Positions 13,051 through 21,557 of a stretch of DNA of 64,000 nt are shown in pieces. The DNA lies in NCBI GenBank assembly GCA_902558375.1, contig CACEDQ010000001.1, positions 25,929 through 89,928 of the forward strand, in the 5' to 3' direction. Position 1 is the stretch's first letter. Each line of letters opens with the position of its first letter. Source of the DNA: an uncultured SAR86 cluster bacterium. Its GTDB lineage: Bacteria > Pseudomonadota > Gammaproteobacteria > Magnimaribacterales > D2472. Both the position numbers and the translations under genes were made by a program. A model generated the notes under the pieces. The model saw nothing but the letters and a program-made list of their open reading frames with translations. It ran no database searches and had not been told where the DNA came from.

Positions 13051-14945
13051 TGATCATAGAGGCAGCCCAATTTTTAACTATCCTTGCTACAGGATTATTT
13101 TTTTTATGTTTTATATTTTCTATTTTTTTTAATGTTAACGATGTAAATATTATTAAACTTATATCTAGAATATATTCTCATAGTTTTTTTCTATTTTTGT
13201 CCTCTTTTTTGATATACGTTTGGCTGGCAATAAATGATAATTTTAGTGTTCTATACATAGCTCAACACTCAAATACGAATCTGCCAGTTTTTTACAAAAT
13301 ATCTTCGATATGGAGTGCGCATGAGGGGTCGATGTTTCTCTGGATCATATTTCTTAGTTTGTGGGGAGCAATTTATAATTTTTCAGTTCATAACAACGAA
13401 CCACTTAAAGCAAGAACCGTTGGAGTAATATCCATAACAACTGTTGGTTTTTTATTGTTTTTACTACTAACGTCCAATCCATTTGAAACAATACTTCCTC
13501 TGCCTCCAGAAAATGGAGCTGATATCAATCCTGTGCTTCAAGACCCGTTGTTAGCAATTCACCCGCCAACACTTTATCTTGGTTACGTTGGTTTTGTAAT
13601 CGCATTTGGACAAGCAATAGCTTTTTTGATAGAGGGCAATTCTAGTATTAATTGGGAAAAACAGGTTAGATTTTGGTCAATAATTGCTTGGTCATTTTTA
13701 ACTTTAGGGATTACTTTAGGTAGCTGGTGGGCATATTATGAATTAGGATGGGGAGGGTATTGGTTTTGGGATCCGGTTGAAAACGTTGCCCTAATGCCCT
13801 GGTTAGCAGCAACAGCTTTTATTCATTCGCTAAGCGCATCATCAAAGTCATCAATCTTAAGAATTTGGACTATTTTATTGTCTATTTTAGTTTTTTCATT
13901 AAGTCTATTTGGAGCATTTATTGTAAGGTCAGGAATCATAGATAGTGTTCATTCTTTTGCAAACGATCCGGAGAGGGGCCTTTATTTGCTGGCTTTTATT
14001 GGGATATTAGTAATGACGTCTCTTATTTTATTTTCTTATAGACTTACAATATTGATTTCAAATAAAAGAATAGTTTCCTTATCAAAAGAATCTTTTATAT
14101 CAATTAATAATATTTTTTTTGGAACATTAATTTTTTCAACAATGCTTGGTGTAATGTATCCATTAATATATGAGTTTATTTATGATCAAAAAATAAGTGT
14201 AGGCGCACCATTTTACAATGCCATATTTGTTCCAATTACGCTCTTAGCATGCCTGTTTCTTCTTTTTTCTATTGAGTCTAAATGGCAAAGCAAACTTAAA
14301 TTTGCTTTTTTGAGTAACCCTCTAATAATTAGCTTTGTATTTTCTTTGTTTATTACTTTTTTATCATTTAAATTTTATTCTGTATCCAGAGCCTGGACGC
14401 TAGCTTCGTTATTCATTGGCTCACTAATAATTAGTAGATATATCATGGTAATTTATGCCTATATTTTTCATAGAAAATTTGTAAATATATATAGTGTTTT
14501 AGCCCATTTAGGACTTGGATTATTAATAATATCTATAGCCCTTAATAATGATTTTAGTTCAGAAAGAGCATTGAATATTAAAATCAATGAAACAGAAACT
14601 TATAAAAATCATGAGATTACATTTAACAATTTACAACTTTCAGAAGGCCCAAACTATGAATCTGTAAAAGCAGATTTCATAATAGAAAATAAAAACGGAA
14701 ATAAATTTTCTTTAAATCCTGAAAAAAGAAAATACTTCGTTAGAGGTCAAATCACAACTGAAACAGCAATACATGCATCCTTATTAAAAGATATATATTT
14801 AACAATTGGTGATCAACTAGATGATGGAAGTTGGATTGTAAATGTTCAGTTTAATTATTTTATAAGATGGATATGGTTTTCAGCCACATTAATGATTATT
14901 TCAGGTTTATTTTTAGCTAGGTCATTAAATAGAGTGCACTCATGA
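13050..14945 (+). CDS. ccmF: Cytochrome c heme lyase
   Basis: HEGS, HPP, WAYYELGWGGYWFWDPVEN, SVHSF. Confidence 0.97.
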   Translation: MIIEAAQFLTILATGLFFLCFIFSIFFNVNDVNIIKLISRIYSHSFFLFLSSFLIYVWLAINDNFSVLYIAQHSNTNLPVFYKISSIWSAHEGSMFLWIIFLSLWGAIYNFSVHNNEPLKARTVGVISITTVGFLLFLLLTSNPFETILPLPPENGADINPVLQDPLLAIHPPTLYLGYVGFVIAFGQAIAFLIEGNSSINWEKQVRFWSIIAWSFLTLGITLGSWWAYYELGWGGYWFWDPVENVALMPWLAATAFIHSLSASSKSSILRIWTILLSILVFSLSLFGAFIVRSGIIDSVHSFANDPERGLYLLAFIGILVMTSLILFSYRLTILISNKRIVSLSKESFISINNIFFGTLIFSTMLGVMYPLIYEFIYDQKISVGAPFYNAIFVPITLLACLFLLFSIESKWQSKLKFAFLSNPLIISFVFSLFITFLSFKFYSVSRAWTLASLFIGSLIISRYIMVIYAYIFHRKFVNIYSVLAHLGLGLLIISIALNNDFSSERALNIKINETETYKNHEITFNNLQLSEGPNYESVKADFIIENKNGNKFSLNPEKRKYFVRGQITTETAIHASLLKDIYLTIGDQLDDGSWIVNVQFNYFIRWIWFSATLMIISGLFLARSLNRVHS

Positions 14946-15472
14946 CAGTTTTTTTAAGAGTATTTATATTAAGCGTATCTCTGATGTTTTTTTACTTTTT
15001 TTATTTATATATTGAAGATGATAAATACTATCCAGGAGCAAGTTTTCAAACTTCAAATATGCCATTGTTTGAACTTGAAGATTTATATTCGGATGGCGTT
15101 ATAACAAATTCAGATATAGAAGGCGCACACTTAATTAACGTCTGGGCAAGCTGGTGCATTACATGCCGAATTGAGCATGGTTTTTTAGTAAAACTAAGCT
15201 CACAAGGTATTCCTATAATGGGGTTAAATTATAAAGACGAAAGAATTGATGCAATAAATTGGATTACAAAGTTTGGTGACCCTTATAAATTTATTATTCA
15301 TGATCTAAAAGGCGAATTAGCCTTAGATATGGGTGTCACTGGCGCACCTGAAACTTTTTTAATAAATAATGGAAAAATTATTGCTCATTACAGGGGTGAG
15401 GTAAATGAAATGATTTGGAGTGATGTTTTTTCTCCAATTATAAAAAAGGAGAACCTTTTTAATGACAATTAA
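14942..15472 (+). CDS. ccmG: Thiol:disulfide interchange protein
   Basis: NVWASWCITC, GVTGAPETF. Confidence 0.93.
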   Translation: MTVFLRVFILSVSLMFFYFFYLYIEDDKYYPGASFQTSNMPLFELEDLYSDGVITNSDIEGAHLINVWASWCITCRIEHGFLVKLSSQGIPIMGLNYKDERIDAINWITKFGDPYKFIIHDLKGELALDMGVTGAPETFLINNGKIIAHYRGEVNEMIWSDVFSPIIKKENLFNDN

Positions 15473-15839
15473 ATCGTTGTTATTTATATTTTTTATATCC
15501 TCAACAAATGTTTTGGGCGATTCTTTATATAATTTTGAAAATATAAAAGATGAGGAAAGGTTTTATAGTTTAATAAAAGAAATTAGATGTCCAAAATGTA
15601 CTAGTGGATCACTTGCAAGCTCTAATGCTCCGGTATCTGAGGATATCAAAAAGAAAATTATAGAATTAATTAAAGAAGGCAAAACTGATGATGAGATTAA
15701 GACTTTTCTGTCTGATAGGTTTGGAAATGAAGTCTTATACAATCCAGGATTGAATAGCAGTACGTATATTCTCTGGATTGCACCAGTATTATTTTTATTT
15801 ATTGCTTTGTTAATATTCTTTTTTAGAAGAAAGACATAA
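15462..15839 (+). CDS. ccmH: Cytochrome c biogenesis protein H
   Basis: IRCPKC, RFG..VLYNP, C-terminal TM helix. Confidence 0.93.
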   Translation: MTIKSLLFIFFISSTNVLGDSLYNFENIKDEERFYSLIKEIRCPKCTSGSLASSNAPVSEDIKKKIIELIKEGKTDDEIKTFLSDRFGNEVLYNPGLNSSTYILWIAPVLFLFIALLIFFFRRKT

Positions 15840-16618
15840 TGTTTTTTATATACTTCTTAGCTTTCTTTGCATTCATTCCAATCTTGGCATATCTGTTATC
15901 GCAAAATACAAACAATAAAGGATATATTTTTGGAATCTCTTTTTTAGTTGTTCTTGTTTGTTTATTTACTGTTGTTGGAAAATACTCATTCTTAGGCTCA
16001 ATTAAAAATCAAAAGATCAATTCAGAAATTCTTATGAATATTAACTTTAATAATAAAATTTCTGAAAATATTACAAGAGAATTTAATAACAATATTAGCA
16101 ATGAAGATAAAGTGTATTGGCTTCAAGGTTATATTAATAAAGCCATTGAAGACAGTAAATTCATTGCTGCTGAAAGCTTAATTTCTATCTCAGAGCAATA
16201 CTTTCAAACTACAGATGAAAAATTTATTTTTTATACCTTATACACAAAACTTAGAGACGCAAAATTCCCTGATTTTGCAAAGTCTAAATTAATTATAAAT
16301 CTTCATTCTCCACCAGAGTGCTCTAATTTTTTTGGTACAGCAGAAGTATTTATCATGAATGGTCCAAAAATACCCATAGCCTCAAAAAAATTCACGGATT
16401 CTTCTGAATTTGAGTTAGAAAATATTCATTCCTCCATTCCTGGTTTTGATTTGGCTTCTGCCTATCTAAATCAAGAAACTCTCGATTTAAAAGTATCATT
16501 AAACTGCCCTGCTACAGCCTCTATTTTTTATTCTGAAAACGCTTTGTTAATTGATAACAATCAGCCTGTAAATTCCTATAATATTAAGGCAAATGAATGG
16601 TTTAAAAGGGAACAATAG
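15839..16618 (+). CDS. Divergent CcmI/CycH-like protein
   Basis: Follows ccmH; two N-terminal TM helices; NGPKIPIA..IPGFDLAS resembles the CcmI C-terminal domain. Confidence 0.55.
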   Translation: MFFIYFLAFFAFIPILAYLLSQNTNNKGYIFGISFLVVLVCLFTVVGKYSFLGSIKNQKINSEILMNINFNNKISENITREFNNNISNEDKVYWLQGYINKAIEDSKFIAAESLISISEQYFQTTDEKFIFYTLYTKLRDAKFPDFAKSKLIINLHSPPECSNFFGTAEVFIMNGPKIPIASKKFTDSSEFELENIHSSIPGFDLASAYLNQETLDLKVSLNCPATASIFYSENALLIDNNQPVNSYNIKANEWFKREQ

Positions 16619-16651: not shown

Positions 16652-19639
16652 ATGCAGCTTAAACATATAAAACTCGCAGGTTTTAAAAGTTTCGTAGATC
16701 CAACGAAGATATCTTTTCCTTCAAATTTAGTAGGCGTAGTCGGCCCTAATGGCTGTGGTAAATCAAACGTAATTGATGCCGTAAGATGGGTTTTAGGAGA
16801 GCTCTCTGCTAAAAATCTTCGTGGGGAGTCTATGGTAGACGTCATCTTCAATGGCTCAGAAAATAGAAAGCCATCAGGACAGTGCAGTATTGAATTACTT
16901 TTTGATAATTCTAGTGGAAAGATTGGTGGCGAATATACTTCCTATAATGAAATTTCCATCAAAAGATTAATGACAAGAGATGCACAGTCAACTTATTTTA
17001 TAAATAGCACAAAGTGTAGAAGAAAAGATGTTCAAGATATATTTCTAGGAACAGGTTTAGGACCAAGTTCTTATGCAATTATTGAACAAGGAATGGTCAG
17101 TAGGCTTGTAAGCGCAAAGCCAGAAGAGCTTAGAACCCATATTGAAGAGGCTGCTGGTGTCTCTAAATATAGAGAAAGAAGAAGAGAAACGGAAAGTCGA
17201 ATTAAGAAGACAAAAGAGAACCTATCAAGAGTTAAGGATATAAAGGATGAAATAGAAAGGCTTATTAGAAGGCTTGAAAATCAAGCTAAAGCTGCTGAGA
17301 AATATAACAAGTTAAAAGAAGAGGAGAATCAGAAACAGACTGATATAGCAATTCTTTATTCACTTGAAGCTAAAAACAATAAAGACAAACTCCAAAAGAA
17401 CTTAGAAGGCTTAAATAGAGATCTCAAAATAAAACAGGCCGAATCAGATTCAAAACAAGCACAAATCGATGATTATAGAACCCAGAATGAGTCTGTAATT
17501 AATGCTTATGAGGATGCTCAGAAAAATTTTTATACAATAGGTGCTGAAATAGCTAAGCATGAATCAGATCTTCATAACATCAATAAATCTGAAGCCACTA
17601 ATTTAGAAGCCCTTGAAAGAGCTCAAAAAAGTTACAAAGATGCTCTTCAAAAAGAGTCTGCATTTAAGGACTTAAGTCCAAAAGAAAAAGAATTAAAGCT
17701 AAATATTGCTATTGTTAAGGCTTTTGATGCTCTTGAGAAAAAAAATACAATCGGTGTATCAATTAAACCGCTCGAAGACCAAATAAACATCAAACAAAAT
17801 GAATTAGATTCGAAGCAGGATATTTTTGACGGTATTAAAGCTAATAAAGACAAAATCGTAAATGAGATAAAAGATATTCAAAAAAATCAATTTTCTATTG
17901 ATGCTGAAATTGCAAGAATCGAAGGCTCAATAAAAAATCTTAATAATTTAGCAGAAAATGCAAAATCAGATTTTGAAGAGGCTTCACGTAATTATGCAAA
18001 TGCTGTTGAAAAAGAGTCAAATAATGAACATTTAAGCCCTAAAGAAAAAGCAATACACTTACTAGATTCAATCACAGACTTACTTAAATCATTTGGATCA
18101 AGCGCAGATAAAGTGAATTCAAAATTATCTGAGCTGAAAGAACTCCTAATGAGCATATTAAAAATTGCTTCTGATCAATCAAAAAGCTTTACTGCAGAAT
18201 ATTTAAATCAAAAAAATAGAGCAGAAGAGGCTATTAACAAAGCTAAGGAAGATAAAAAAATTGCTGAAACTAAGCTTGAAGACCTTAACAGTCAAAGAAT
18301 CTCAATTGGTAATCAACTGGAATCACAGATTAATATTCAGACTAATATAGATAACCAATTGCAAGAAATGGATAGCAATAAATCTGTTGTATCAAATGAA
18401 CTTAGAAACCTTGAGAAAGAAATTAATGATTTAAGGCTTGAGCTAAGAACTCACGAAATTAATTTAGAAAATGCTTCAATGGTTTTAGAGAAAGCAGAGG
18501 TAAGTATTTCAGACCTTGATTCAGCACAATACAAGGGGATGGATTTAAAAGGGCTTGAGGTCTCTTTAGATGAAATACAAAAAAACATTGCTCAATTAGG
18601 TTCATTTAATTTAGCTGCTCCCGAGGAGTACTTGAGCAGAGAAAACGAATTAAAAAAATTAATTGAAGAAGCTGAAATAAGGAAGTCTGAAATTCAAGTA
18701 ATTATGGATGGCTTGGTAGAAAAGAGCTCTCAAGCAGAATCTGAATTAACAGCCATAAGGCAAAAACAATCTCAGTTTAATGAAAGCTTAAGAGACCTTG
18801 AAAATCAAAAAAATGTAGCTGAATTAGATCTTAAATCAATTGCAGAGAAAGTTACTAATCTGAGGTTGGATTTAAAAACCCATGAAATTAATTTAGATAA
18901 CGCAAATACTAAAATTAAAGAGGCTGGTTTAAATATTGAAAATATAGATTATTCAAAATATGAAGACATGGATCTTAATGTCCTCCAAGATTCACTTGCA
19001 GATATACAGGCAAAAATCATACGTCTAGGAGCTATCAACCTTGCAGCTCCAGAGGAAATAGCTGCTGAATCAAAAAGGAAAGAAGAGCTAGATGTTCAAT
19101 ACAACGATCTTACTGAAGCTCTTGAAAAACTTACAGGCGCCATAAAAACAATTGATCTTGAAACAAAAACAAGATTTCAAGATAGTTTTGATTCAATAAA
19201 CAAAAGAATGAAAGAGGTATTTTCAAAGTTATTTGGTGGTGGTTTCGCTGAACTTGCTCTTACTGAAAATGATGCACTAAATGCTGGTGTGGTAATTATG
19301 GCTAGACCTCCAGGAAAGAAAAATTCATCAATTTCTCAATTATCAGGGGGTGAAAAAGCTTTAACTGCTTTAGCTCTTGTTTTTGCAATTTTTGAACTCA
19401 ATCCTGCGCCTTTTTGTATTTTAGACGAAGTAGATGCTCCATTAGACGATTTAAATACTATGCGTTTTATAAATATGGTTGAGGAGATGTCAAAGACAGT
19501 TCAATTCATATTTATAACCCATAATAAAGTTTCTATGGAAAAAAGTGATCATTTAATGGGAGTTACAATGCAAGAAGCTGGTGTCTCTAGAATGGTTTCT
19601 GTTGACGTCAATCAAGCTCTAGAGTTTGCTGAAGTATGA
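16652..19639 (+). CDS. smc: Chromosome segregation ATPase SMC (atypical: no recognisable hinge, duplicated arm segments)
   Basis: GFKSF, GPNGCGKSN, IEQG, EEAAG, LSGGEK, LDEVDAPLD, ITHNK; upstream of zipA. Confidence 0.95.
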   Translation: MQLKHIKLAGFKSFVDPTKISFPSNLVGVVGPNGCGKSNVIDAVRWVLGELSAKNLRGESMVDVIFNGSENRKPSGQCSIELLFDNSSGKIGGEYTSYNEISIKRLMTRDAQSTYFINSTKCRRKDVQDIFLGTGLGPSSYAIIEQGMVSRLVSAKPEELRTHIEEAAGVSKYRERRRETESRIKKTKENLSRVKDIKDEIERLIRRLENQAKAAEKYNKLKEEENQKQTDIAILYSLEAKNNKDKLQKNLEGLNRDLKIKQAESDSKQAQIDDYRTQNESVINAYEDAQKNFYTIGAEIAKHESDLHNINKSEATNLEALERAQKSYKDALQKESAFKDLSPKEKELKLNIAIVKAFDALEKKNTIGVSIKPLEDQINIKQNELDSKQDIFDGIKANKDKIVNEIKDIQKNQFSIDAEIARIEGSIKNLNNLAENAKSDFEEASRNYANAVEKESNNEHLSPKEKAIHLLDSITDLLKSFGSSADKVNSKLSELKELLMSILKIASDQSKSFTAEYLNQKNRAEEAINKAKEDKKIAETKLEDLNSQRISIGNQLESQINIQTNIDNQLQEMDSNKSVVSNELRNLEKEINDLRLELRTHEINLENASMVLEKAEVSISDLDSAQYKGMDLKGLEVSLDEIQKNIAQLGSFNLAAPEEYLSRENELKKLIEEAEIRKSEIQVIMDGLVEKSSQAESELTAIRQKQSQFNESLRDLENQKNVAELDLKSIAEKVTNLRLDLKTHEINLDNANTKIKEAGLNIENIDYSKYEDMDLNVLQDSLADIQAKIIRLGAINLAAPEEIAAESKRKEELDVQYNDLTEALEKLTGAIKTIDLETKTRFQDSFDSINKRMKEVFSKLFGGGFAELALTENDALNAGVVIMARPPGKKNSSISQLSGGEKALTALALVFAIFELNPAPFCILDEVDAPLDDLNTMRFINMVEEMSKTVQFIFITHNKVSMEKSDHLMGVTMQEAGVSRMVSVDVNQALEFAEV
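17330..18049 (+). repeat. Two diverged tandem 360-nt (120 aa) units in the SMC N-terminal arm
   Basis: IAI at 17345/17705, IKQ.E.DSKQ at 17429/17789, LSPKEK at 17672/18032; each pair exactly 360 nt apart. Confidence 0.9.
18197..19054 (+). repeat. Two diverged tandem 429-nt (143 aa) units in the SMC C-terminal arm
   Basis: EYL at 18197/18626, HEINL at 18452/18881, NLAAPEE at 18608/19037; each pair exactly 429 nt apart. Confidence 0.92.
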
Positions 19640-20274
19640 TAAGTTCCAATATAGATATATACTTAATTGGTTTTTCTGTTCTTATATTTCTTATAATCAC
19701 ATTTCTTTTTATAAGAAAAATTTCTAATAAAGGAGAGCTCAAAGTAAAAATTGAGCCTGTCACAGATACATTTGAAATAAAAGAATTTGATGAAATTGAT
19801 ATAAAGTCTCAACAAGCATTTGATTTTGATGATAAAGATCATATTGATTATCAAGAGCAAAAACTTGTTGTTTTAAATTTAATATCCATTGATAAGTCTA
19901 TGTTTGAAATCGATCAAGTATATGGTTTTATGAGCAATGTTGGAGCAACCTTATCACAGGGGTTCTTCGTTATAAAAGATAACAATAATAAGGAGTCATT
20001 TAGAATAGCTAACGCTTTAAATCCTGGCACATTTGAATCAGAGACTAGTACTTTTGCAATCATTGTTGCTGCTGATCTCAATAACGTCTTAGATCCAATT
20101 AAAACAGTAAAAGACATGGTAAATTTTGCTTATGAATTTACTGAAAAGTTTTATGCAAATATCTGTGATGAAGAAAGAACACCAATAACCAAACAAATGA
20201 TTTCGCATATTGAATCTCAAGCTCAAGAGATAGCGAGATTAAAACAACTTGCAGTTGCTGAAAAATCTGACTAA
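19636..20274 (+). CDS. zipA: Cell division protein ZipA (short)
   Basis: N-terminal TM helix; FRIANALNPGTF and ICDEER match the ZipA C-terminal domain; smc-zipA synteny. Confidence 0.85.
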   Translation: MISSNIDIYLIGFSVLIFLIITFLFIRKISNKGELKVKIEPVTDTFEIKEFDEIDIKSQQAFDFDDKDHIDYQEQKLVVLNLISIDKSMFEIDQVYGFMSNVGATLSQGFFVIKDNNNKESFRIANALNPGTFESETSTFAIIVAADLNNVLDPIKTVKDMVNFAYEFTEKFYANICDEERTPITKQMISHIESQAQEIARLKQLAVAEKSD

Positions 20275-21557
20275 TGAAGCCGTGGAAAATAATTCAAAAA
20301 CTTGAAAGTGATAATAGTAGATTATTTAAAGAAAACGTTATTGAAGAAAATATTAATGACCTAGACTTTCAAGAAGGTCTATCAATGTGCCTAGATGCAT
20401 TGGTAACATTTGGCGTTAAACAAGTTCCTAAATCTGATAAAAATGGAAAAGGATTAAGTTGGAGTTCTTTCAAGAACTCCGCCTTACTATTAATAGAAAG
20501 AGAAAAAACCGGTCACGCTGCTAGGGATGAAATTTTGGCGCTAATGGATAAAGCTACTTTAGAAGAGTGGAATGATTGGTATAGAAGAATCTTAATAAAG
20601 GATTTGAGATGCGGCGTAAGCGAGAAGACAGTCAACAATGTTGCAAAAAAAATGGATATTCAATTTAGGGTGCCTGTTTTTGCTTGCATGCTATCTCATG
20701 ATGGAATGAAACATCCAAAAAAGATTAAAGGTAACTGTTTAATTGAATATAAATATGATGGAGTGAGGGTAATAGCGATAACAAAGAAAAATAATACAAC
20801 TCTTTATAGCAGAAATGGAAAAATATTTAGCAATTTCCCTCATATTGAAGAAGCATTAAGCAAACCTGAATTTAATAATATGGTTTTTGATGGTGAGGTC
20901 ATGAGCAATGACTTTCAATCATTAATGAAACAAGTTCATAGGAAAACCAATGCAAAAACAGAAGATGCATATTTAGCTTTGTTTGATATCTTGCCTCTTA
21001 AAGAGTTTAACGATGGCAAAAGCAAGCTTACCACCCTTGAAAGAAAACATAATTTAGAGAAATTTTCTAAAAAATTTCCTTCATGTATCAAAATTGTTGA
21101 CTATCAGGTCGTAGATTTTGATAAAGAAGAGGGTGAAGCAATATATTCTAAAATGAATAAAGAAGCACTAGATCGTGGTTATGAAGGATTAATGATAAAG
21201 CCTGTGAATGATTTATATGAATGCAAAAGAAGTCATGCCTGGCTAAAAATGAAACCCTTCATTGAGGTCACATTAAAAATCACAGAAGTTCATGAAGGCA
21301 CTGGCAGGCATGCAGGGAAGCTTGGTGCATTTTCAGTAGAGGGTGCTGATGATGGTAAATTTTTCTCTCTAAATGTAGGTAGTGGGTTAACTGATGAAAA
21401 TAGAGAAAAGTTTTGGGAATATAAAGATTCATTAATTGGACAATTAATCGAAATAAGAGCAGATGCTGTTACTCAAAGCATGGAAGGTGAAAATTACAGC
21501 TTAAGATTTCCTCGTTTCAAAACATTTAGAGGTTTTAAACCGGGTGAAAAAATTTAA
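20274..21557 (+). CDS. ATP-dependent DNA ligase
   Basis: Motif I EYKYDGVR, III FDGEV, IIIa LFDIL, IV EGLMIK, V WLKMK, VI SLRFPRF; no Zn finger, HhH or BRCT of LigA. Confidence 0.95.
   Translation: MKPWKIIQKLESDNSRLFKENVIEENINDLDFQEGLSMCLDALVTFGVKQVPKSDKNGKGLSWSSFKNSALLLIEREKTGHAARDEILALMDKATLEEWNDWYRRILIKDLRCGVSEKTVNNVAKKMDIQFRVPVFACMLSHDGMKHPKKIKGNCLIEYKYDGVRVIAITKKNNTTLYSRNGKIFSNFPHIEEALSKPEFNNMVFDGEVMSNDFQSLMKQVHRKTNAKTEDAYLALFDILPLKEFNDGKSKLTTLERKHNLEKFSKKFPSCIKIVDYQVVDFDKEEGEAIYSKMNKEALDRGYEGLMIKPVNDLYECKRSHAWLKMKPFIEVTLKITEVHEGTGRHAGKLGAFSVEGADDGKFFSLNVGSGLTDENREKFWEYKDSLIGQLIEIRADAVTQSMEGENYSLRFPRFKTFRGFKPGEKI

Follow-up and report, generated by a model that had tools for sequence, protein, structure and literature searches.

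Matched internal repeats in both arm strands of a hinge-less Smc from small-genome marine Gammaproteobacteria

How both strands of a long antiparallel coiled coil can be lengthened in step is the question raised by one gene in a stretch of 64,000 nucleotides, here called the window, from an uncultured SAR86 cluster bacterium (GenBank assembly GCA_902558375.1, contig CACEDQ010000001.1, positions 25,929 to 89,928 of the forward strand), whose genome (G000; about 1.0 Mb in 31 contigs) is 72% complete. The gene encodes a protein of the structural maintenance of chromosomes (SMC) family with 995 amino acids (aa), and a preliminary description, made from the letters of the DNA, had proposed that the interval 17330-19054, which corresponds to residues 227-801 of the open reading frame (ORF) at 16652-19639 on the forward strand, contains paired tandem duplications that lengthen both arm strands of an SMC protein lacking a hinge. 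The gene is best explained as encoding the Smc component of a chromosome-organising complex (Smc-ScpAB plus ParB) that is in other respects ordinary, in marine Gammaproteobacteria with small genomes, and the account favoured overall, with some confidence though not a high one, is that of a hinge-less Smc whose arm was extended by matched duplication of one module, which was gained and then spread between lineages.

The duplication itself is seen directly in the protein. A scan of its self-diagonals with the BLOSUM62 matrix gives two outstanding matches, one at an offset of 143 (residues 516-670 against 659-813, score 244) and the other at an offset of 120 (residues 199-350 against 319-470, score 213), with the third-best diagonal scoring only 61. 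Both alignments are ungapped, with 49 of 155 positions identical (32%) on the C strand and 46 of 152 (30%) on the N strand. The phase that best delimits the repeated units is 231-350 and 351-470 for the N strand and 516-658 and 659-801 for the C strand, at most four residues from the boundaries originally drawn, and it gives the proposed order head-N1-N2-apex-C2-C1-head with units of exactly 120 and 143 aa. Two motifs are duplicated along with the units. LSPKEK is found at residues 341 and 461, and the motif singled out in the preliminary description, LG..NLAA.EE, occurs as LGSFNLAAPEE at residue 649 and as LGAINLAAPEE at residue 792, whereas its loose form (G..N..A..E) is present exactly once in all 68 canonical Smc proteins longer than 1100 aa. 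The DNA of the copies, spaced by 360 and 429 nucleotides (nt), is only 48-51% identical, a divergence which suggests that the copies are old. Both offsets recur in all four of the other long forms scanned and in the representative P0122; they are missing from all 11 shorter relatives scanned (best diagonals 47-95) and from P0123.

It could be argued that such self-similarity merely reflects the heptad composition of a coiled coil, the background diagonals of which reach 45-95 in the relatives, or that the gene is an artefact of assembly. Heptad composition does not account for the scores, given that 30 shuffles of residues 170-830 yielded best diagonals of 48.0±4.2 with a maximum of 59, or for the lack of the repeats in short relatives. 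An artefact is contradicted by the strong divergence of the copies, by the presence of a 995- or 996-aa gene in 35 fetched genomes, and by a metagenome collection clustered at 90% identity, in which all but one of the 120 best clusters have a length of exactly 995 aa. The repeats are thus confirmed, and an explanation by heptads or assembly is refuted, with next to no probability left to it.

The manner in which the extra sequence is built into the arm was approached with AlphaFold2 models. The model of the long form has helices at residues 170-334, 343-456 and 463-479, a turn at 480-482, and then helices at 483-614, 632-649, 657-757, 775-792 and 800-861. The model of a short form (locus L054; 33 sequences, predicted local distance difference test score, pLDDT, of 72) has helices at 171-336 and 343-360, a turn, and then helices at 366-494, 512-528 and 536-598. 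Comparison of the two lists shows that what the long form has beyond the short one is a 114-aa helix and a break on the N strand, and a 101-aa helix, a 17-aa loop, an 18-aa helix and a 7-aa loop on the C strand. Measured outward from the turn, the 114-aa N helix at 343-456 lies opposite a C stretch of 115 aa (residues 500-614), and the proline-containing N break at 335-342 lies opposite the C excursion at 615-656. Consistent with that, dips in the pLDDT co-locate at 333-341 with 646-655 and at 457-465 with 501-510, and a helical-hairpin chain can be aligned without interruption to residues 399-569 of the model. On the assumption that the 18-aa helix packs on the N strand, the 120 residues of the N unit would be opposed by 119 helical residues of the C unit, leaving as loop the 23 aa by which the two units differ. 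The helix lengths, rather than model coordinates, suggest that N2 pairs with C2 and N1 with C1, which is what the preliminary description had asked to be checked, and that the distal copy (N2 with C2) probably stacks on the proximal one (N1 with C1). The module so defined combines a 120-aa N strand (some 112-114 aa of helix and a Pro-containing break) with a 143-aa C strand (a 101-aa helix and a 42-aa joint-like excursion). The arm would then be a stack of one or two such self-contained modules, capped by a helix-turn-helix apex, and this structural part of the explanation is held to be very probable. The positions of all parts are collected in the table.

The module includes a second copy of what resembles a functional element. 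In Bacillus subtilis, ParB binds the Smc joint, as shown by cross-links to K220, K245, K954 and K957 (Bock et al. 2022, PMC9449133). To judge from how far each lies from the ends of the protein, this ParB-binding joint would be matched by the proximal excursion (758-799) together with the beginning of N unit 1, so that the duplicated module would carry a second, mid-arm joint-like element. The adjoining neck and proximal joint of the N strand (residues 170-230), present as a single copy, is 70-83% identical across genera. In the models, the extra module is predicted to create a discontinuity in mid-arm on both strands at the same height; it is a matter of speculation that this might bend like an elbow, or might offer a second joint surface and a second contact with ParB or DNA.

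Table. Parts of the hinge-less Smc gene and neighbouring genes, in positions of the window
Feature	Position	Strand	Basis
smc gene, hinge-less Smc, 995 aa, stop included in coordinates	16652..19639	+	ORF
N-terminal half of ATPase head, residues 1-169, Walker A GPNGCGKS	16652..17158	+	sequence; PDB head chains align 1-163 / 2-172; arm helix begins at 170 in model
Neck and proximal joint of the N strand (single copy), residues 170-230	17159..17341	+	within helix 170-334
N unit 1, residues 231-350, ends LSPKEKEL (helix break 335-342)	17342..17701	+	offset-120 self-alignment; AlphaFold2 break
N unit 2, residues 351-470, ends LSPKEKAI (helix break 457-462)	17702..18061	+	offset-120 self-alignment; AlphaFold2 break
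Apex, residues 471-515: helix, 3-residue turn 480-482, helix	18062..18196	+	alignment; AlphaFold2
C unit 2 (distal), residues 516-658, ends in second joint-like excursion, LGSFNLAAPE	18197..18625	+	offset-143 self-alignment; AlphaFold2 breaks 615-631, 650-656
C unit 1 (proximal), residues 659-801, ends in canonical joint excursion, LGAINLAAPE	18626..19054	+	offset-143 self-alignment; AlphaFold2 breaks 758-774, 793-799
C-strand neck and C-terminal head half, residues 802-995, LSGGE signature, Walker B ILDEVD	19055..19636	+	sequence; PDB head chains align from about 836
zipA, 212 aa	19636..20274	+	Pfam ZipA_C 6.5e-13; ATG overlaps smc stop by 4 nt
ATP-dependent DNA ligase, after zipA	20274-21557	+	DNA_ligase_A_M 7e-24 plus OB_2
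Three small ORFs: thioredoxin-like WCITC motif, CPKC motif, membrane/TPR-like protein	14942-16618	+	upstream of smc

A matched module of this kind should be visible among relatives as a step in length, and it had been predicted that orthologues would cluster near 732 and 995 aa, 263 aa apart. In a survey that began with 41 related genomes and was extended with the head alone as query, which matched 228 of the 266 genomes of the order, the family of the window organism yielded 118 genes with a head match (a count made by hand from the head-query listing), of which 38 are long (995/996 aa), 74 are short (727-733 aa) and six are cut or broken; no intermediate length occurs among the 112 complete ones. 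Exact ORFs taken from fetched loci comprise 35 of 995/996 aa and 28 family members of 727, 730, 732 or 733 aa, and, compared with the window protein, each of these 28 is missing exactly 120 + 143 aa; in the 727-aa forms another 5 aa are absent from the apex. Both classes even coexist within single genera, as g13 holds 732- and 995-aa forms and g14 holds 733- and 996-aa forms; the genus of the window protein has 995-aa genes. The predicted modes and the quantised step have thus been borne out, and internal repeats are confined to the long forms among the relatives scanned. Outside this family, the open frames in the 41 related genomes measure 733-759, 809-817 and 825-843. In the fetched loci, the Smc of family f4 is 732-736 aa long and has each unit once. 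The top 150 representatives at 50% identity have lengths of 995, 732, 736, 810, 827, 990, 941 and 906 aa, with two fragments, and otherwise 1110-1220 aa, and none of these 150 has a length near 852, 875 or 1258 aa. One of them, P0134 (990 aa), was considered as a parallel case and rejected, since it aligns end to end but has a hinge match (1e-5) and no repeats.

Two further observations concern arm length in the order. In families f2 and f3 (loci L025-L030 and L036-L040) the hinge-less Smc is about 807-827 aa long, with each strand about 40 aa longer than in the 732-aa form, so that arm length has changed in register more than once in the order; no repeat is detectable in the f2/f3 proteins scanned. 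In one g14 genome (L050, G096:C2:294655-297366) a long-type smc is broken by an in-frame TGA into a 212-aa head frame and a following 709-aa frame, which is either a pseudogene or a sequencing error.

By its head and by its whole-protein score, the protein is an Smc. Pfam SMC_N matches residues 3-979 of the window protein (190 bits, 5e-56), and the ATP-binding cassette (ABC) ATPase head is split in the usual way, with GPNGCGKS (Walker A) in the N-terminal part and LSGGEKA and ILDEVD (Walker B) in the C-terminal one. The NCBIfam equivalog for bacterial Smc (TIGR02168, SMC_prok_B) scores 855.2 bits in three stretches against a cut-off of 567.35. The closest solved relatives by sequence are Smc head-neck constructs (E 4e-106), and the best structural matches of the long-form model are SMC heads (Z 15-18). 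An identity as Rad50 or RecN is not supported, as the NCBIfam Rad50 models reach 42-64 bits against cut-offs of 700-1087 and the RecN model TIGR00634 reaches 30.4 bits against 407.85. Residues 123-921 contain no cysteine, hence the arm has no CXXC zinc hook.

The hinge, by comparison, is missing, as had been stated in the preliminary description. No match to SMC_hinge (PF06470) was found at E<=0.01 in the window protein, nor at E<=1 in five members of the order (732, 732, 810, 826 and 995 aa), and a 1166-aa Porticoccus Smc used as a control matched it at 2e-10. No hinge-only chain occurs among the 53 PDB sequence matches of the window protein. Only 45 residues, modelled as helix-turn-helix, lie between the repeats; this apex is common to short and long forms and stands in place of the hinge that the Smc proteins of other Gammaproteobacteria (1155-1173 aa) possess. 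The best explanation is that the whole order has lost the hinge domain and that the arm now ends in a short helix-turn-helix apex. Two Smc-like representatives, P0255 (941 aa) and P0265 (906 aa), are 42-43% identical to the query and have neither a Pfam hinge match nor internal repeats, and hinge loss may extend through them to other lineages with yet other arm lengths. Dimerisation of a hinge-less Smc would have to come about through the apex, through the alignment of arm with arm, or through nothing more than the heads plus kleisin.

The partners of Smc have been retained, ParB as found in relatives. ScpA (PF02616, 92 bits) and ScpB (PF04079, 173 bits) are encoded side by side at G000:C4:19555-20705. 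ParB_N was not found in the 72% complete genome G000, and is present in all 12 genus members that are at least 85% complete and in 38 of the 41 genomes overall. With heads, neck, joint, ScpAB and ParB all conventional, it is most likely that the complex still loads at parS and serves to organise the chromosome.

How the two lengths came about is a question for the phylogeny. Trees were built from the head and neck (424 columns), from the shared parts of the arm and from the units of 21 long forms, those of 66-143 columns being weak; the approximately unbiased (AU) tests used groups defined by length, which were known before the trees were built. The head and shared-arm trees follow genus labels and place the long forms in three clades, namely g1+g12, part of g14 and part of g13, with well-supported branches of both forcing at least three changes of length; holding the long forms together on the head tree is rejected (log-likelihood difference 297, AU p=7e-56). 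The proximal C unit tracks the genus tree along with the single C unit of the short forms. These clades might suggest three independent parallel duplications in g1+g12, g14-long and g13-long. That proposal is refuted, with a probability close to nil, by the distal copies, in that the C2 units of the 21 long forms make up one clade (support 100/97), as do their second N units (U2; 100/94), apart from their own first units, and the length and position of the insert are identical everywhere. Parallel duplication being excluded by these single clades, the unit trees show that each extra unit arose once; what is left is a single gain that spread laterally, or an old gain followed by many losses.

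The similarity of the inserts between genera points to their route. At fixed topology, the ratio of maximum-likelihood distances in the insert to those in the shared arm lies at 1.8-2.4 for comparisons inside genera and between g1, g12 and g14, and falls to 1.1-1.35 towards g13; the bootstrapped ratio of ratios is 0.55 (95% 0.43-0.68), with none of 300 replicates at or above 1. Between g13 and g14, identity in the inserts is 48-50%, a level similar to that found inside one genus, whereas in the shared arms it is only 52%, against 63-69% inside genera. The extra units of each long genus are closer to the first or single units of g13 than to their own first units, as in g14, where C2 is 51% identical to g13 and 41% to its own C1, and the extra C unit sits beside the g13 units in the tree (88/79). 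Identity between the two copies peaks in g13, with 49/51% in L047 compared with 33-35% in the window protein. Since the inserts resemble those of g13 and differ too little from genus to genus, a single gain with subsequent lateral spread is favoured, a history to which somewhat better than even chances may be given. Most likely, a matched duplication would have occurred in a short gene of the 732-aa type in a g13-like lineage, and recombination between genera would then have carried the extra module into the lineages ancestral to g14-long and to g1+g12. We infer, rather than observe, the direction of the change, its lateral spread and any functional benefit of a longer arm.

The direction in particular has a competitor, in which the family started out with the long two-module form, the duplication being older than its crown, and matched deletions then repeatedly produced the 727-733-aa forms. 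Such a history would need no lateral transfer of a segment of an essential gene; it agrees with a copy-to-copy identity of 27-51%, as low as that of the deepest orthologous arms (35-47%) and in keeping with an old duplication; and an origin of C2 outside all C units of the family is not rejected (AU p=0.116). It would demand, however, some 6-8 independent double deletions on the head tree in place of three changes, each removing exactly 120 + 143 aa, with one and the same deletion phase recurring in about 8 clades. All 28 short forms combine a body of the first type with a tail of the second, which is what is expected if the short form is ancestral. At residues 347-348, the first tail of all 35 long forms has EL, whereas 27 of the 28 short forms share A[MLI] with the second tail of the long forms. 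One-sided intermediates are seen neither among the 112 complete family genes nor in the 150 top representative clusters, family f4 as an outgroup is likewise short and single-copy, and between g13 and the other long genera the inserts are about half as diverged as vertical descent predicts. An ancestral long form with repeated loss is accordingly regarded as unlikely. A rather less improbable variant, though still a doubtful one, concerns the mechanism, in that the apex of a short gene may have been exchanged in a single step for a further whole arm hairpin (N unit-apex-C unit), copied from an allele of sister or foreign origin. This would avoid an intermediate with unequal strands, and it fits the contiguity of N2-apex-C2 in the gene and the lack of one-sided intermediates, the similar divergence of the N and C copies (30% and 32%), which move in parallel across genera, and the extent of the alignments (152 and 155 aa), which exceed the periods of 120 and 143 by a weak overrun that could mark the joints. 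In the apex tree, moreover, the main g1 clade, which includes the window protein, groups with g13-long (84/82) and not with the rest of g1 and g12, although this tree is weak (66 columns) and does not reject monophyly of g13 (p=0.25). On the other side, the apex shows no general excess of similarity among long forms, and, a tandem array having no fixed phase, the resulting sequence would look the same as after two tandem duplications. Mapping of the breakpoints in each genus, best at residues 299-350 with overlapping ranges, is uninformative on that phase.

It has to be noted that several observations weigh against a single gain followed by spread and against the structural reading. The AU result given above leaves the direction unproven. 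The g13 units lie on short branches, so that 'g13-like' may partly mean 'least changed', and the insert distances, at 1.4-2.2 substitutions per site, are near saturation. The apex (residues 457-522) mostly follows genus, and since the inserts flank it, a transfer needs either two patches or a later re-conversion of the apex; excess similarity among long forms is confined to the stretches beside the inserts, at residues 301-336 and 666-695. The genomes sampled are species representatives and their kin, many of them incomplete, and are not independent samples. As to the structure, the long-form model was built from 35 sequences and has a pLDDT of 69 and a predicted template modelling score of 0.30, with 70-93 in the arms and poorly modelled heads, and the pairing of the strands is read from helix lengths. 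The N-unit tree also roots oddly on the long f4 branch. The apex of L001 (window 18020-18217) is 61% identical to those of the g13 and g14 long forms against 50% to that of its genus-mate L024. Mosaic recombination may have taken place in the centre of the gene. The preliminary description had supposed that a shrunken SMC protein regained arm length, and of this the matched duplication has held up, and the long arm does fall at the canonical mode, while the direction is favoured but has stayed unproven and the history is not that of a simple gain in a single lineage, the long forms being polyphyletic on their flanking sequence. A more tentative extension of a single gain with spread, thought possible rather than probable, is that the arm module behaves as a transferable cassette, made once and then passed from genus to genus on two or more occasions, with fixation on each of them, maybe as an N2-apex-C2 block. 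If so, two condensin arm lengths, of about 28 and 46 nm, persist in sister lineages of abundant ocean bacteria, both hinge-less.

These lengths follow from the predicted N strand, which has about 310 residues in the long form and about 190 in the short one, with the rise of a coiled coil being about 0.148 nm per residue. Averaged over both strands, with the heads taken to end at about 170 and to restart at about 836, and measured to the turn of the apex as there is no hinge to measure to, the arm comes to about 333 aa for long forms, about 201 aa for short ones and about 240-248 aa for f2/f3. For the same reason the comparison with published arms is rough. Burmann et al. (2017, PMC5344682) describe natural prokaryotic modes of 163, 238, 341, 423 and 515 aa, an arm of 344 aa in B. 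subtilis, and functional windows of 253-267, 330-373 and 407-435 aa for B. subtilis Smc, which recur with a period of 91-99 aa. By that scale, the long form lies near the mode of 341, f2/f3 lie near 238 and the short form lies between 163 and 238. The best explanation for the long form is that it is back at the canonical Smc arm length, as estimated from the models, and the added module would thus restore canonical reach. The rationale offered in the preliminary description, namely that function depends periodically on the length of the arm, has to be abandoned as the reason for the step and counts among the points against the wider account, as the units of 120 and 143 aa (mean 131.5) are not a multiple of the 91-99 aa given in that source.

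The overlap of the zipA start with the smc stop suggests that the two may be translationally coupled. Gammaproteobacteria typically carry the NAD-dependent ligA in the slot after zipA, and here it is occupied by an ATP-dependent ligase; the adenylation domain of NAD ligases (PF01653) was not found anywhere in the 72% complete G000. The three small ORFs upstream look, from their motifs, like cytochrome c maturation genes of the CcmG/H/I type.

The length of the SMC arm and the hinge are usually treated as near-invariant and functionally tuned. Here, matched natural pairs of Smc that differ by one arm module are found in closely related genomes, hinge-less and with ScpA, ScpB and (as found in relatives) ParB kept, and the case shows an evolutionary lengthening of both strands of an antiparallel coiled coil in register. 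As natural alleles, they make testable the role of arm length in loading and loop extrusion, and the way in which an Smc dimer closes or works without a hinge. If the lateral spread is true, a segment of an essential gene is able to pass from one genus to another.

Set beside known systems, the protein resembles Rad50/SbcC and RecN in having, besides a head, an antiparallel coiled coil that ends in a small apex without an SMC hinge, and RecN dimerises via its coiled-coil apex. It is unlike Rad50/SbcC in lacking the CXXC hook, and its scores for the Rad50 and RecN families are far below their cut-offs. Like canonical Smc (B. subtilis, TIGR02168), it has the halves of the head at both termini and a joint-like excursion with LG..N..A..E before the C-terminal head, and the complex is likewise that of canonical Smc-ScpAB, with ScpA and ScpB in the genome, ParB in relatives and a long arm of about 333 aa against the 344 aa cited for B. 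subtilis. Unlike canonical Smc, it has no hinge, 995 instead of 1155-1173 aa, and a duplicated arm module with a second, mid-arm joint-like element. A literature search returned no title or abstract on duplication of an SMC arm or on a hinge-less Smc in this group, and it did not turn up the dimorphism of the arm module. Hinge-less ocean SMC proteins had already been reported in 2025, when a 'hinge-less' SMC abundant in ocean metagenomes was assigned to Actinomycetes (Environ Microbiome 2025, PMC12153180). The protein described here shares with that clade an SMC head, an antiparallel coiled coil, the lack of hinge and CXXC, and abundance in ocean metagenomes, and like it was not found beside a regular smc; it differs in being gammaproteobacterial, and neither arm duplication nor length dimorphism is mentioned in the part of that text consulted. 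The nearest likeness in design is to the engineered proteins of PMC5344682, among them Mini-Smc, the extended BsSp-Smc and Smc(zinc-hook), a functional chimera with a zinc hook in place of the hinge, in all of which both strands are resized in register or a non-hinge apex is tolerated. Unlike those constructs, the forms described here are natural alleles, and their step is 120/143 aa in place of about 91-99 aa.

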